A stretch of 64,000 nucleotides of DNA from Escherichia coli (GTDB lineage Bacteria > Pseudomonadota > Gammaproteobacteria > Enterobacterales > Enterobacteriaceae). How positions within the stretch are numbered: position 1 is the first letter of the stretch; each line of letters starts with the position of its first letter. A model generated the notes under the pieces. The model did no database searches, was not told the DNA's origin, and was given only the letters and a program-made list of their open reading frames with translations. The position numbers and the translations under genes are program-made. Below, piece after piece: positions 3,070 to 10,071 of the stretch. The DNA lies in NCBI RefSeq assembly GCF_050320075.1, contig NZ_CP190018.1; one strand, given 5' to 3'.

Positions 3070-4167
3070 ATGGCTGAACGAAGAAAAACTCATCACTCAT
3101 GGAAAACCCGCCGCGATATGGTTATTCGCGGCATGACGATTAGTTTGCCATGGTTTGCTTTTATCAATGTCAGTTTTGCATTGATAATTTTGCTGCGCCG
3201 TGTTCTGTTTAATGACCTTACTCCACCCTGGTTAAATGAAAAAAGCCTTATACATTCTATTGATATATCTGCAACGGGTATTCTGCTGATTTGCAGTGGT
3301 TTACTACTCATCCCTCGGCAAAAAACATTACCTATCCAGGTGCTATTAGTTGCCCTGAGCCTGCTATGGTCATGGTGTAGTTATCACTTTATTGCGTACT
3401 GGACGCTGCAGTTTGCTTATCCACTATGTGTATTATTAATGCTTAGTGGCGTTGTCGCACTTTATTTCCATACCCCATCATTGCTCGCATTTGTCATTCC
3501 CTTATGGTTCACCACTCCAATAGCGAGTCTTATGCTTAATCAACAGATCAATATTCATTTTGCTGTTGTATGGTGTATTTTTTCACTGGCGCTATATGGT
3601 GGGCGACTCATTTTGTTACGTTGGTTTGAAGAAGCATGGGTACAAAACAGTTATAACAACCAGTTAATTAATCGCCTTGATGCATTAGCACATCGTGATC
3701 CTTTAACTGGGATAGCAAACCGACGTGCAATGAACAGTATCTTACACGACGCGATGGATAACGGCGGGTCATTTGCTCTTATTATGCTGGATGTCGATTT
3801 TTTTAAACGTTACAACGACACTTACGGGCATCCTGCTGGGGATCGTTGTCTAATACAAGTTGCCGACGCTCTACAGCGTTCAACTCGCCAGTCGGAGGAT
3901 GTTGTTGTCCGTTATGGTGGCGAAGAGTTTGCCATCATACTTTTTAATGCAACATTGCCGGAAGCAGAGACGGTAGCAGCCAGAGTGAAGCAAGAACTTA
4001 AACTGGCAGCTATCCCACATCAGGCATCTGCTGTTAATGCATTTGTTACGGTTAGTCAGGGGATTACCTGTTCTGCTCCCGCAAAAACGGCTGAACAAAT
4101 TATTTCAGATGCCGACGCTGCGTTATACCGGGCGAAAGAAAGTGGGCGAAATCGATGGGCTTTATAA
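3070..4167 (+). CDS. membrane-anchored diguanylate cyclase (GGDEF domain, GGEEF active-site motif); start codon uncertain
   Basis: Hydrophobic multi-helix N-terminal half; C-terminal GGDEF domain with RYGGEEF and DxLTG-like motifs. Confidence 0.8.
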   Translation: MAERRKTHHSWKTRRDMVIRGMTISLPWFAFINVSFALIILLRRVLFNDLTPPWLNEKSLIHSIDISATGILLICSGLLLIPRQKTLPIQVLLVALSLLWSWCSYHFIAYWTLQFAYPLCVLLMLSGVVALYFHTPSLLAFVIPLWFTTPIASLMLNQQINIHFAVVWCIFSLALYGGRLILLRWFEEAWVQNSYNNQLINRLDALAHRDPLTGIANRRAMNSILHDAMDNGGSFALIMLDVDFFKRYNDTYGHPAGDRCLIQVADALQRSTRQSEDVVVRYGGEEFAIILFNATLPEAETVAARVKQELKLAAIPHQASAVNAFVTVSQGITCSAPAKTAEQIISDADAALYRAKESGRNRWAL

Positions 4168-4240: not shown

Positions 4241-4792
4241 CTATCTTCTTAGCGATGTCTTTCTGGTATCACATTGGATCGGTGCAATTATTTTTCCTTT
4301 AATACCCATTATGTTAAGAAATTCAGAAACAGCTGTAATCTCATTGTTTTTTTCATTCGTCTTGATCTTCCAAGGAATCTGACTGTGCATTATTGAGAAC
4401 ACACTAATAACGTGAATCGCTCCCTTGCGACGACTCTTGTCATAAGAGTACCGGAGCGTTTTTCCATCAATTGCAATGACGTCTTTATCATCTGAAGAAT
4501 GGCAGTCAAGCATCCAGTTAATAAAGCACTCATAAAATTTTTCAGGACTGATACAGGATACAACTCTGGCAATGGTATCGTGAACAGGAATACCATTATC
4601 AAAATCACCATATTGCTTCAAAAAATCGAGATGTGTTTCCCCAAAATCCTCTATATCTTCCCAGCCTTCTGCACCCGAAATAACGGCACAAATAGTCAAC
4701 AGTAGAATATCCGATAATTTATGTTCCACTTTCCAGGCTTGTCTGTAATCGGGGATAATAGAAATATGTCCCATCAATTTTTTAAGTTCCAT
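4241..4792 (-). pseudogene. H-repeat-associated (ISAs1-family transposase-like) gene remnant, N-terminal ~183 codons only
   Basis: Aligns to the first half of the 378-codon H-rpt frame at 10493..11629, then diverges and stops. Confidence 0.7.
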
Positions 4793-5065: not shown

Positions 5066-5377
5066 CTGCTATACGCCGGACACCCTTTACGTAGCATTCG
5101 GAATTCACCCGTAAATTTATCACGGCGGTATCACGAAACCTCCGGTTCTGATGCCGCTTAGGACTAACGACACGTCAACACAGGTTCGGGTTTATTCATT
5201 TCACTGTATCTCATATAATCTGAGCACTCCCCCTGCGCTCGCTACTATGACTCTTTACCACAGCAACCGGGGTTGTTTGGGATCGGCTTTCAACAGCAGA
5301 TCCCGGTGGCTATTGCAAGTAAGTCTACTTTCCACATCAGTGTTACTGACACAGAAAATAATGAGTTATGATCCTTG

Positions 5378-5863
5378 TCATATTTTTAATATAGCCCCAT
5401 GAGCTATAGGATCAAAACCTTCTAACCATGAGGTGTTTTTATCGAATAATGCATCTGTTATATTTATATCGCCATATCTATCACATAATAAATTAGCGCC
5501 ACATAAGTCAGCACCAGAAAAATTTGAATCTTTAACGTCTGCATTGCAAAAGGTTGAATTAGTTAATATAGCACCCTCAAAGTTTGCACCTATTGACCTT
5601 GAATTACTAAAGTCACTTCCAGTGAAATCTGAGTTATTAAGAATAGCGTTCATCAGAGCCGCATTGCGAAAGACAGCATTTCTAGTTGATGTATGTTGAA
5701 TCATTACATTTCTTAAATGGGAATTTTCAAATTTCGCCCCATCAAGACAATAACCATTGAGGATGGCACGATGTAGATCCATCCCGCTAAAATCATATCC
5801 AGCAAGAGTGGTACTATCTATATCAAGAAATTTATTGGTTATTAAAAACGCGATTCTTATCAT
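5378..5863 (-). CDS. pentapeptide-repeat protein, putative immunity protein for the adjacent Rhs C-terminal toxin
   Basis: 161 aa with tandem A(D/N)LxG/F-type pentapeptide repeats; its start overlaps the Rhs stop by 4 bp (ATGA); AT-rich. Confidence 0.75.
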
Positions 5864-8800
5864 CTATTCCCCCAATCATCTAACTCCGGAAAAATTTGGC
5901 TAAACGGATATAGTGGTGCCGATAATGGACGCGTACCTGGCCGCTCAGGAGGAAGTTTATCACATAACAGACCCGCAACCATCCTGTGATTACCATTAAC
6001 AATCACATTCCCATCCATATCAACCGGTGGTGCTCCACTACCATCTTCCAGCATTTGTACGTAGTGAGCTACTACGGGTACTGAGACTTTTTGTTGTACT
6101 GTCAACAAGGGACTGTTGGCCACAACCATCCTGATGTTTTCAGGTGTCGTAGGTAAACATTTAGTCTTCTCTTGACTAAAGGTATCATCCCACAATTTTG
6201 TTAAACCCATCACTGCCTGTTGTCTGTATTTATCCATGGGGTCAGCAATCAACCAAGATGGACCTGACTGCTCTATGGAATCTTCTCCGGAGAGACCCAA
6301 CGGATCTATCTTAGTAGTTGGATTCAATGGATACTGATACAGGTTCCATGCACCTCTTAGCCCAATGGGATCCTGGGTGATATACCGCCCCTGCAACGGG
6401 TCATAGTACCGGTTGCGGTTATAGTACAGCCCCGACTCCTCATCATACTGCTGCCCCGGCAGACGGTACGGCTGTTGCAGTTGCTGCGCGCTGGTTTCGC
6501 CCAGCAGGTTTCCCCACTCGTCATACTCCCCCTGCCACGCCGTTTCCCCTTCCGGGCTGATGAGCGCCTGCGGCAGCCCCCGGTGGTCGCAGTGGTAAAG
6601 ATGAAGTGTCCTCTCCGGGATGTATTCCGCCTCCATCTGGTTTTTCATCTGTTCCGCCGTCAGCCCGCACTGCTGAAGCCATGCCTCACTCTCCGCACTC
6701 ACCGCACCCGCGCGCAGTTCCCGCTCCAGCCTCCCCAGCATCACCGACAGCTCCGCCGGTAGCGTCACCCCCGTGTCCTCCTGCAACACCTCCGCCAGAC
6801 TCCGGTGCCGCGCCTTCGCCTGTTCACCATTCTCTGTTTCGATTCTGATGAGCGGCGTGAAGCTCCCCGGCTGGTATACCGTCTGGATACGCGTGGTGCC
6901 GGTCTGTACCGTCGTCAGCCTGTCACCGTCCCACCCGTACCAGGTCTCCTCCGGTTTACGCGACAGCGACATCCACCCCGTCAGGTCACGCTCCCGCCGC
7001 CACACCCGTTTCCCCGTCCGGCGGCCCAGCGGGTCATAGAGGTAGCGGCTCTCCACCTGTGGCTCGCCGTGCTGTATCCGCGTGTAGAACACCAGGCGGT
7101 GCTGGCTGTCGTAATGGTAGTGGTGCGTCCGCTCGTCGTGCATCCGTATCACCCCTTCCGGGATACGGTCCGTCTTCTCCGCCAGCCTGCCGTATTCATC
7201 GTAGCGGTAGACATAGTGCGCATCTTCCGTGATGCGGTTATCCGGCCACGCCGTGAAGGTGCTGTCCGGGTGCAGTTCCGGGTCCGGCAGCCGGTTTCCT
7301 GCCGGGTCCGTCGCATACGGGATATCGATATCCAGGTTCGCCGCCGTGGTGTGAACGCCCGTCAGTCTTCCCGTGTCGCTGTAACGGTACTTCCGGCTCT
7401 CCTGCGGGCCGCTGATGCGCACCAGTTGCCCGTTATCGTTCCACGTATACTCACGGTCAAGCTGCGGAAGGTTCAGGTGCCTGCTCCGGAGCTGCCCTGT
7501 GAGGGTGTACGCCGTGGCCTGTTCGTACCCCGCTGTACTGCCCGCCCCGCCGAAGCTGCGGGCCGTCTCACGGTGCAGCCGGTCCCGCGTGTACTCGACC
7601 AGCGGCGTTCCGCCCAGCTTCATCCCCGCAAGATAACCGCTGCCATACGTCAGCCACTCCACCGGCGGCAGACCGTCCGGCTCCTGACGGGTCGCCAGCC
7701 CCTGTTCGCTGTAGACGTGCCTCGTCTCATGCTCCCACAGCATCTCCCCCGTCTCCTGGTTCTCCACCGTCTGCCGTTCGCCCGTCAGGCGGCCTTTATC
7801 GTCATAGCCGTAGTGGACCGCCACACGGTGGCCTTCGCTCAGGTGGCTGATTTCTGTCAGCCAGCCGTGGTCGTCATACTGCCACTGCTCCGCCGGGTCG
7901 CCGTTCACCGTCCGGTGCGTGATGCGCCCGGCGTCATCGTAGTACCACTGCGTGACCTGCCCCTCATCCTCGCTGCGGATGAGCTGCCCTGTGGCGCTGT
8001 ACCGGTAACGCTGTGTCCTGCCGTCAAAGCCGCGCTGCTCCGTCAGCCTGTCCACCGGGTCATACCGGAACGTGGACTGGCTGCCGTTCTCGTTGGTCAG
8101 CACGGTGATGCGCCCGGCGGCGTCATACTCCATGCTGCGCGTCAGTCCGCCCTGCGTGGTGCTGACGGCCTTTCCCCACGCATCATACTGTGTCTCACTC
8201 CGGCTGCCGTTCGGGGCAATGATAGCGGTGAGGTCGCCTGCGGCGCTGTACTCATAACGGGTTTCACGTCCCTGCGCATCCTTCTGACTGACCAGTTGAC
8301 CACGCGGGTTATAACTGCTGTAAGTGCTGATGCCTTCCTCCCGGTGAACCGCCGTCCTCTGACCGTACCGGTCGTATTCATACCGCGTCGTGTACCCTGA
8401 ACAGTCCGTAAATGCCTGAAGCTGACCGTACCGGTTTCGCGTTATTCTCCGCCTCACCCCGGTTCCGTCTTCCACCGCACAGGGCAGGCCACTGCGGGAA
8501 GAATCATAAAACCAGCGCGTAATGTTACCGTTGCGCGAGACCTCTTCCGCCAGCCTGCCCTGACGGTCATATTTCCGGCTGCGGCGCAGCCCGTCCGGGT
8601 ACGTCACTGACGTCAGTTGCAACTGGTTGTTGTAACCATACCGTACCGTCCTGCCGTCCGGCAGTATCACTGAAGTCAGCTTTCCCGACGCCATATGCAG
8701 CCGGTACTCCGTCCGCCGTCCCGCCGCATCCGTCTGCGCCTTCAGCCTCCCCGCCTCATCATACTCGCTGCGGGTGATGCTCCCGTCCCCATACTCCTTC

Positions 8801-10071
8801 TTCACCACCCGCTTCAGGCCGCCCTCGCCCTCCGTGTACAGCACCTCCCGCCGGTTCAGGCTGTCCGTGATGGTCACGCGGTCCTGCCCGTACTCAAAGC
8901 GGTAGTCCAGCCCCTCCGGGTTGACCTGCTCCGTCACCCGACCGGTATCATCATACCGGTAGCGGCTCTCCGGCCTCCCCGCATAATGGTGCGCCACCAT
9001 CCGCCCGGCGTGCTCCGCATCATAAGTAAACCCGCGCACCTGCGTCCCGCTGCGGTCATACACCGCCCGCAGTTCTCCGCTGGCCGTGTACGTGTAGCGC
9101 GCCAGCGGCGCAGTCGGCAGTTCATCCGGGTATGCCGGGTCGTGTGTCAGCCATACCGCCTCCAGCCGGATACCGTTATCGGCACCGTACTCTGTACCGG
9201 TGGGCAGCGTGTCGGGGAAAAACTGAGAAGAGGAAACAGAACGGGGACTGGCCGGAGAAGATAAAGAAGACTCGCGCTGTTTACGGAAGGCTTTCGCCCG
9301 CTGCGCCTGTGTGGTCAGCGCCAGATGAAAACGGCGGCCCGCGCCGTCCGTCACCCCCGTCACCGCGCCCGCCGCTTCCCCCTCTGCCGCCCGGTGGAAG
9401 GCCAGCGTCCGCCCGAAGCCGTCCACCACGCCCGTCAGCACCCGGTATGCGGGCGGCTCCGGCGGCAGCACCTCGTCCGCCTCCGGCACCCGCTCCGGCC
9501 AGCCGAGTATCCACCACGGCCCCTGAAGGCTGTTTGTCGCCAGGTACACATGCGGGCTTAAGCGGAGACTCTCCGGCAGCACCTGCCAGAGCGCGCTTAG
9601 CGGCTGCGAACTGTGCTGCTCCGCCACCCCGCCCCTTGCCAGCCAGAACGACTCGCTGCGGCTGTAGCTTATCTCGCCGGGAAACAGCGGCTCAAAGTGA
9701 ATGCTCCTGCCGCCACTGTCGTTGAGTATCAGTTCCCGCTCATGAACCTGTAAGCGGATATCGAAGGGCGCTTTCCAGCCGGGACCAAACACCCCCACCG
9801 GCGCGGGTGTCCTGGTCCGGTAGCTGCTGTAGGCGCGGGAAAGAATAAACGGCAACGGGCCGGGCAGCGCAAGATCCGTCTCGCCCGGCAGCACCTTCGC
9901 ACCCAGTAGCGGGTTCACCGGGTTACCCTTCTGCTCCTCCACCGGGCTGTTGGGACACACCGAGCAGGCCACTCCCGTCGGCGCACCTATCAGCACCCCC
10001 GCTGAACCCTGCACAATATCCAGTCCCTTGCGGGTCATATCGCCCTGTCGCGCCGCCGGTTTTCCGCTCAT
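5860..10071 (-). CDS. full-length Rhs family protein: PAAR-like N-terminus, YD-repeat core, DPLGL boundary, variable C-terminal toxin domain
   Basis: 1403 aa; conserved Rhs N-terminus [13 protein letters not shown]; many YD/RYxYD repeats; PxxxxDPLGL motif; GC-rich core. Confidence 0.9.
5863..6291 (-). other. Rhs C-terminal variable toxin domain (~143 aa after DPLGL), family not recognised
   Basis: Sequence after the DPLGL motif is unrelated to the conserved core and lower in GC. Confidence 0.6.

Follow-up and report, generated by a model that had tools for sequence, protein, structure and literature searches.

What kind of toxin ends an Rhs protein whose C-terminal tip matches no family in the sequence libraries, and what is the role of the pentapeptide-repeat protein (PRP) encoded directly behind it? 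These questions are raised by an Rhs cassette on the minus strand of a 64,000-nucleotide stretch of Escherichia coli DNA (contig NZ_CP190018.1), the whole of which is called the window below. A large store of unexplored enzymology lies in the tips of Rhs and contact-dependent inhibition (CDI) toxins. In this work, our analyses place the tip in a large, Pfam-invisible branch of putative toxin domains, with at least 329 clusters at 50% identity and a dedicated PRP partner in at least seven phyla. We favor, with moderate confidence, a reading in which the tip is a toxin of the ParB/sulfiredoxin (Srx) fold that is likely to damage DNA, and in which the PRP confers immunity by binding to it.

Architecture of the Rhs cassette

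The Rhs gene (5860..10071, minus strand) is intact according to both the open reading frame (ORF) list and the raw sequence, and encodes 1403 residues. The NCBIfam model RHS_core (NF041261) spans residues 1-1260 with a score of 2513 bits (cutoff 2000), TIGR03696 matches residues 1183-1260, and Pfam recognizes DUF6531 together with 12 RHS_repeat matches. The core terminates in ...IDPLGL, which we take to be the self-cleavage site established for Rhs proteins. Behind it, 143 residues remain (SGEDSIEQ...DDWGNR, first codon at 6291); the original prediction of a 143-residue tip after DPLGL thus holds, as RHS_core ends at residue 1260 of 1403. The GC content, 60–70% in the core, drops to 43–45% for the tip and ~35% for the PRP gene, which is the usual break between Rhs core and tip.

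The PRP start codon overlaps the Rhs stop codon, since the plus-strand letters tcat at 5860-5863 read ATGA on the minus strand. The overlap indicates a putative translational coupling of the two genes, and a Shine-Dalgarno-like GGGGGA run lies 5 nt upstream of the PRP ATG. Raw sequence and Pfam likewise agree with the earlier description of this second gene as a pentapeptide-repeat gene of 161 codons overlapping by ATGA. The features of the cassette are as follows.

6292..10071, minus strand: Rhs core (DUF6531, YD/RHS repeats, Rhs-associated core down to DPLGL), residues 1-1260, from NCBIfam RHS_core and Pfam
6292..6306, minus strand: DPLGL motif, residues 1256-1260, the core/tip boundary, read from the translation
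6160..6291, minus strand: variable tip linker, Rhs residues 1261-1304, a region without conservation among homologues
5863..6159, minus strand: predicted ParB/sulfiredoxin-fold toxin domain, Rhs residues ~1305-1403
5983..5994, minus strand: G-N-H-R motif, residues 1360-1363 (GGT AAT CAC AGG), a predicted nucleotide-phosphate binding site
5860..5863, minus strand: ATGA overlap of Rhs stop and PRP start, from the ORF list and the raw sequence
5378..5863, minus strand: PRP, 161 residues, candidate immunity protein, from Pfam, family alignment, charge and synteny

Pfam finds Pentapeptide (PF00805, E = 1.8e-8) and Pentapeptide_4 (PF13599, E = 1.8e-6) in the PRP. Its residues 21-140 comprise 24 uninterrupted pentads, or about six coils, with L, F, I or V at nearly every fifth position and without loops of the Qnr type. 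The protein has a net charge of -6 and an isoelectric point (pI) of 5.0.

The tip belongs to a widespread domain family

As far as sequence libraries are concerned, it was fair to call the tip unassignable, as the original prediction did, whereas an alignment-based structure model makes it a divergent ParB/Srx-fold domain (see below). No Pfam family matched the tip even at E ≤ 10, and neither the NCBIfam models nor the PDB sequences, searched with phmmer, gave a match. The best hits of a PDB profile search, signal recognition particle and cilia proteins at E = 0.2, were judged to be chance. A word-indexed protein search with the tip alone as query returned two fragments only; full-length Rhs proteins are probably represented in that set by cluster members with other tips. 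When 1.84 billion cluster representatives (clusters at 50% identity) were scanned exhaustively with HMMER, at least 329 of them matched the tip at E ≤ 1e-3; a stricter E ≤ 1e-10 was reached by 117.

Nearly all of the 150 best matches cover the last ~100 residues of the carrier protein, and they mostly end 0–2 residues from its C-terminus. Carriers range from about 80 residues, in orphan fragments, to 2388 residues, and their scaffolds comprise Rhs/DUF6531, SpvB/TcdB/Rhs Tc-toxin-like, PT-HINT, DUF637, filamentous-haemagglutinin (CdiA-like) and WapA-like proteins. The first ~44 tip residues form a variable linker that is wholly different in one Logan contig (L002), and conservation starts near ...TFSQEKTKC.

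Alignment A1, which holds 62 family sequences, has the consensus VT...I..A......T.Q..VS.P.V.RYV..L..G..APPIKVDG..IVDGNHRY.AG...G..P...PGT...........I..D..DWGN. Invariant in A1 are Q1326, S1330, G1360 and H1362 (Rhs numbering), and R1363 as well as D1399 of DWGN are nearly so. The central motif is D-G-N-H-R in the family consensus, with H, V or T also found at its third residue and the R at least 90% conserved; the E. coli tip reads N-G-N-H-R. The toxins of the family vary in charge (median pI 8.3), and the E. coli domain is on the acidic side (pI 5.2).

A dedicated PRP family follows the domain across phyla

Scanning one genome per species with A1 yielded 80 loci, while a scan with the single tip as query found no relative. 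The loci come from Neisseria, Aggregatibacter, Pseudomonas, Achromobacter, Budvicia, Snodgrassella, Bacteroidota, Paenibacillus, Cytobacillus, Clostridia, Sorangium, Pirellula, Verrucomicrobia and Actinomycetota. At 62 of the 80 species-level loci, a match to the PRP profile follows downstream on the same strand within 1.5 kb; contig ends account for two of the 18 exceptions. The phyla with a downstream PRP are Proteobacteria, Bacteroidota, Bacillota, Myxococcota, Planctomycetota, Verrucomicrobiota and Actinomycetota. Across loci, the PRP start often overlaps the toxin stop codon by 1–4 nt, and the PRP follows the toxin domain whatever the scaffold, be it Rhs of a type VI secretion system (T6SS), CdiA-like, HINT, Gram-positive Rhs or Tc-toxin-like.

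Three further contigs carry the pair. In the Logan contig L002, tip and PRP are 65% and 66% identical to those of E. coli; on a second contig with a PRP, the tip of an Rhs/DUF6531 protein is 44% identical. On the GC-rich contig L004, a Tc-toxin-like protein of the SpvB/TcdB/Rhs type with 2388 residues ends in the toxin domain (~36% tip identity), and a 150-residue PRP ORF that is uncalled in the source annotation (L004:10164-10616) overlaps the toxin stop by ATGA. This synteny bears out the earlier proposal that the PRP is the immunity candidate of the tip.

The PRPs constitute one family of ~160 residues with an N-terminal MIxIxxETGE strand and a C-terminal T-x-W-P..F-x-P..G cap. H31 and R51 are invariant and R32 is conserved to 94%. 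As H31 and R51 are 20 residues apart, which corresponds to one coil, they should stack on one edge of the helix. The family is acidic, with a median net charge of -6 and a median pI of 4.8. Over 1128 locus pairs, mean identity was 44.7% for the toxin versus 34.5% for the PRP, which was the lower of the two in 91% of pairs, and PRP identity co-varied with toxin identity (Spearman 0.50). Such faster divergence combined with co-variation is usual where a protein binds to a diversifying toxin, and would not be expected of a gyrase binder.

Pentapeptide proteins are known accessory components of T6SSs (PMC3942780), and the PRP might likewise assist secretion or act as a chaperone, on the model of the pentapeptide proteins TagAB/TagB from T6SS clusters. 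We consider this most improbable, for the PRP tracks the toxin domain across delivery systems and not any one secretion system, its gene overlaps the toxin stop codon, and orphan PRPs are found inside immunity-gene arrays. Nor is the PRP a member of a conserved housekeeping family, an outcome that would have spoken against the original prediction. Of 5426 complete E. coli genomes, 143 have the full-length gene, each of them together with the tip, and elsewhere in the species it is a decayed fragment in an Rhs immunity array; a housekeeping function was hence rejected. Altogether, 275 of the 5426 genomes have a match to the PRP gene, and a partial fragment is the sole copy in 132 of these. The pair is at least 99% identical in 143 genomes, where it is annotated as 'RHS element core protein' and 'pentapeptide repeat-containing protein', and none of the 143 genomes that carry the tip lacks the PRP.

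Some copies of the two genes stand apart from an intact pair. In L002:1-510, an in-frame stop separates the DPLGL linker from the conserved domain, and the PRP gene is intact; the Rhs tip of this contig is a pseudogene or orphan module, if not a product of misassembly. An intact PRP gene without toxin stands alone among unrelated genes in Intestinirhabdus alba (L092:6001-6486). Another intact orphan, in Enterobacter sp. (L091:2022-2537), lies in an array of orphan Rhs tips with a glycine-rich membrane-toxin-like sequence and small membrane proteins. Both are 57–68% identical to the E. coli PRP. In the RhsA locus of E. coli strain elppa4, between yibF and yibH, a decayed fragment (L090:7082-7366) shares 95% identity with nucleotides 1-285 of the PRP gene; its neighbors are NTF2-fold, DUF6258, YibA (HEAT) and Imm57 immunity genes, and no trace of a ParB tip was found beside it.

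Orphan copies, a fragment in an immunity array and linkage to the tip are, judged from sequence, the habits of an immunity gene. The PRP is almost certainly the cognate immunity protein of the tip.

The tip is predicted to adopt a ParB/Srx fold

Structure prediction, which had been suggested as a check on the tip, was informative with the family alignment and not with the tip alone. From the single sequence, AlphaFold reached a predicted local distance difference test (pLDDT) score of 37; with A1 it gave a pLDDT of 92, a predicted template modelling score of 0.82, and a β-α-β-β-α core with GNHR at a helix N-terminus. A Foldseek search of AFDB50 returned family members, several of which, 52–57% identical to the tip, bear the UniProt name 'ParB/Sulfiredoxin domain-containing protein'. 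When A1 was compared by hhalign with human sulfiredoxin, whose sequence was checked against PDB entry 1yzs, PPI(K)V aligned with PPIDV and G-N-H-R-Y-x-A with G-C-H-R-Y-A-A at E = 0.0025, with a probability of only 12% on this one-sequence template. Two negative results temper the assignment: a Foldseek search of the tip model against the PDB gave nothing significant, and none of the 62 members of A1 matched Pfam ParBc (PF02195). We nevertheless regard a ParB/Srx fold as quite likely.

By analogy, the G-x-H-R loop would be the counterpart of GCHR in sulfiredoxin, GERR in ParB and DGHHR in Tox-ParB toxins and should hold nucleotide phosphates. The tip is about 10–19% identical to sulfiredoxin and other members of the ParB/Srx superfamily (ParB/KorB CTPases, the serine kinases SbnI and SerK). 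It differs from sulfiredoxin in that the catalytic Cys is Asn, and from the superfamily in being the ~100-residue end of a secreted toxin, without a helix-turn-helix or second domain. A His-Me/GH-E reading of NGNHR was rejected, given the lack of a Pfam match and the predicted ParB/Srx fold.

From its sequence features, the tip fits the Tox-ParB class as a divergent member. Zhang et al. 2012 (PMC3482391) describe ParB domain toxins that are carried by Rhs and haemagglutinin proteins and share a 'strongly conserved DGHHR motif', argue for nuclease or phosphotransfer activity, and give Imm20, Imm27 and Imm-SuFu as immunity partners; the first 300,000 characters of that paper contain neither 'pentapeptide' nor HAD or 'haloacid' nor 'phosphatase'. 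Common to both are the position as C-terminal tip on Rhs and filamentous-haemagglutinin proteins, the ParB fold, as predicted here, with D/N-G-N/H-H-R, and the spread over broad phyla and several secretion routes. The present family, likened to the class by description and not by sequence, differs in being invisible to Pfam ParBc, and hence a divergent branch, and in its partners, which are a PRP at 62 of 80 loci, else a HAD-like or a 96-residue protein, and not Imm20, Imm27 or Imm-SuFu.

In the literature searched, no paper after 2012 treats Tox-ParB, DGHHR or ParB-like T6SS effectors, and no member has been characterized. The toxin class is thus already known as a prediction of 2012, and the cassette itself is an ordinary Rhs element. 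New, or barely documented, are the systematic pairing of the class with a dedicated PRP family and the small HAD-like partner (mini-HAD) of a sister clade. The original prediction had counted a known nuclease with an unrelated target among the findings that would speak against it; membership of the Tox-ParB class, whose members are predicted nucleases or phosphotransferases, goes part of the way toward this.

Other partners in sister clades

Not all relatives of the tip are paired with a PRP. A beta-proteobacterial Rhs subclade, found in Mitsuaria, Paucibacter and two metagenome contigs, carries toxins 45–50% identical to the E. coli tip that end in ...LQIQP instead of DWGN. These toxins are followed not by a PRP but by a mini-HAD of 93–118 residues, often with a 4-nt overlap of the toxin stop.

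L013:1173-1529, mini-HAD partner
L038:348-704, mini-HAD partner
L088:2716-3063, mini-HAD partner
L089:4092-4373, mini-HAD partner

Read by eye, the mini-HADs keep the four HAD phosphatase motifs (hhhDVDDT, S-S-G, K-P and hhDD); no Pfam or NCBIfam model matched them. To judge by these motifs, a mini-HAD may give enzymatic immunity, and it offers an experimental handle on the chemistry of the toxin, namely reversal of phosphorylation versus sequestration. On contig L005, the toxin partner is a 96-residue protein for which NCBIfam holds no family.

More distantly, Bacteroidota possess stand-alone ParB/Srx proteins of 115–153 residues that are 23–30% identical to the tip, each followed by a ~155-residue HAD_SAK_2 protein (PF18143, E = 1.4e-22). 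In the Pfam description, PF18143 is a HAD domain found in RNA repair proteins termed 'Swiss Army Knife'. The following loci may be either toxin-immunity pairs or a repair module.

L066, L068, L078, L079, L080, L085 and L087: ParB/Srx gene with HAD_SAK_2, the HAD ORF starting ~20–85 nt after the ParB/Srx gene, near 3290-3830

How the PRP might protect

The original prediction envisaged a tip that poisons gyrase or topoisomerase IV and a PRP that shields the enzyme by DNA mimicry, like Qnr, MfpA, McbG and AlbG. Since every PRP of known function in the literature found protects a topoisomerase, this idea was reasonable a priori, and PRP genes have been used as markers of gyrase-poison gene clusters (PMC5982219, PMC7897471). 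The present PRP, too, is an acidic pentapeptide-repeat β-helix and a putative self-protection factor encoded beside a toxin, and it shows weak sequence matches to QnrB1, MfpA and McbG-like chains. Its NCBIfam scores, however, lie far below the cutoffs (Qnr 33.2 versus 240, MfpA 34.3 versus 360, QnrB 33.4 versus 460 bits), so that the likeness reflects the repeat alone. With ~160 residues and 24 pentads, the PRP is shorter than these proteins, lacks their loops, has its own MIxIxxETGE/H31/R32/R51/T-x-W-P signature, and partners a protein toxin and not a small-molecule gyrase poison.

The wider family does not support a topoisomerase target either. Other clades of the same toxin pair with the unrelated mini-HAD or 96-residue proteins, and, for all the high conservation of gyrase, the PRP evolves more quickly than the toxin. 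Among the protein gyrase poisons CcdB, ParE and FicT, we know of none with a ParB/Srx-like fold, and to our knowledge no polymorphic-toxin immunity protein protects the target of its toxin; both points count against gyrase. We therefore consider protection of gyrase or topoisomerase IV unlikely.

The toxin fold, the unrelated partners in sister clades and the more rapid divergence seen for the PRP together favor direct neutralization of the toxin, although none of them is decisive. That the PRP acts by direct binding to the toxin appears fairly probable to us. We may thus sketch the following course of events. The tip would be delivered, cleaved off at DPLGL, and act in the cytoplasm of the target cell, probably as a metal- and nucleotide-dependent phosphoryl-transfer enzyme. 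Its likeliest substrate would be DNA, with damage of the nuclease type. In the protected cell, the acidic, DNA-sized β-helix of the PRP would occupy the substrate groove of the toxin, with the family-specific His/Arg/Arg patch on two stacked coils as the putative contact; immunity would not pass through gyrase protection. The preference for a DNA-sized acidic β-helix as partner suggests that the toxin groove accepts duplex nucleic acid, in agreement with the nuclease prediction for Tox-ParB. A 2025 preprint, in which ParB-motif Rhs tips in Pectobacterium were labelled DNases, is in line with this too.

Several points weigh against DNA damage and a DNA-mimicking PRP. With its pI of 5.2, the E. 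coli tip domain is a poor fit to a basic DNA-binding surface or to electrostatic mimicry. Characterized ParB/Srx domains better support nucleotide binding and phosphotransfer than DNA cleavage, and the motif-intact mini-HAD phosphatase of the sister clade points to a kinase-type toxin. Moreover, the faster divergence of the PRP could reflect loose sequence constraints on repeat proteins. Toxicity, activity and binding are, finally, properties of the tip and PRP that we infer.

In a kinase-type toxin, the ParB/Srx domain would phosphorylate an essential molecule at the expense of ATP or a different NTP, be it a small metabolite, a protein or the end of a nucleic acid; the PRP would still bind the toxin, and the mini-HAD would remove the phosphate. 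The closest structural relatives of the tip are ATP-dependent phosphotransferases and the sister-clade partner keeps intact phosphatase motifs, from which it follows as a possibility that the toxin phosphorylates and the HAD reverses. Yet no substrate can be named, HAD-like proteins can be inert binding scaffolds, the mini-HAD call was made from motifs read by eye outside any Pfam or NCBIfam match, and most polymorphic-toxin immunity proteins are plain binders. A kinase-type toxin is thus conceivable but rather doubtful. Much the same applies to a sulfiredoxin-like NTP-dependent phosphotransferase with two antidotes, a PRP plug that mimics substrate or DNA and a ~100-residue HAD phosphatase that erases the modification, which we put forward as a tentative idea only. 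If the phosphotransferase reading were true, the PRPs would count among the earliest examples with a function other than protecting topoisomerases, and polymorphic toxins would gain a new immunity fold.

Returning to the toxin-binding PRP that we favor, a PRP that neutralizes a protein toxin would, if true, widen the known roles of a fold whose members of known mechanism all act on topoisomerases. The PRP-toxin pair is a tractable system to learn what the β-helix mimics. In E. coli, it is small (about 100 plus 161 residues), is present in a model organism, and suits standard toxicity and rescue assays.

Related toxin-PRP pairs

A preprint of July 2026 (bioRxiv 10.64898/2026.07.13.738213) describes Tse6-Tsi6a of Stenotrophomonas rhizophila CFBP13503, with an Rhs-Ct 'of unknown function', provisionally a nuclease, and a Tsi6a that resembles a PRP; orthologues, borne on a variety of scaffolds, are present in Actinomycetes, Planctomycetes, Myxococcota and Gammaproteobacteria. 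Compared by description alone, Tse6/Tsi6a may be the same family as the E. coli pair. The preprint differs from our account in that it names no ParB/Srx fold and calls the domain rare (37 strains), and none of the species it names is among the organism names checked for carriers of the present family. YjbI-like PRP genes have also been found beside GH-E His-Me-finger Rhs nucleases, where they were not assigned as immunity genes (Jablonska et al. 2017, PMC5714182). These GH-E toxins are likewise a DNA-targeting Rhs class near PRP genes, but their fold is unrelated to that of the tip.

Genomic context in E. coli

Bases 5300-6400 of the window are 100% identical to E. coli strain YZLc1-3. In that strain, the locus is flanked by ansP/yncG and by genes for a GGDEF protein and an alkyl sulfatase, pptA and yddH. 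Among the Rhs polymorphic-toxin cassettes of E. coli, this is a standard one, located at an RhsE-type site. Transposase remnants lie on both sides of it.

4241..4792, minus strand: ISAs1-family (H-repeat) transposase fragment, the downstream bound of the Rhs element; an ORF, frameshifted and incomplete in the annotation of the identical genome
10493..11629, minus strand: ISAs1-family transposase pseudogene in two ORFs, upstream of the Rhs gene, from the ORF list and the annotation of the identical genome

The Rhs gene has no vgrG, hcp, PAAR-adaptor or Eag-type chaperone gene as a neighbor, and delivery of the Rhs protein would hence depend on T6SS genes elsewhere in the genome. An 80-residue E. 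coli protein (P0001) is a variant of the tip that diverges into unrelated sequence after ...KLPPERP; by its sequence, it looks like a frameshifted allele in which the C-terminal third of the domain is lost. The remainder of the window, ~11700-64000, corresponds to NZ_CP123240.1 2693300-2745600 and is ordinary E. coli chromosome according to the annotation of that genome, which lists in this region the small toxin systems ortT, hicAB and hokB as well as IS200C, IS150, tehAB, trg and hrpA.

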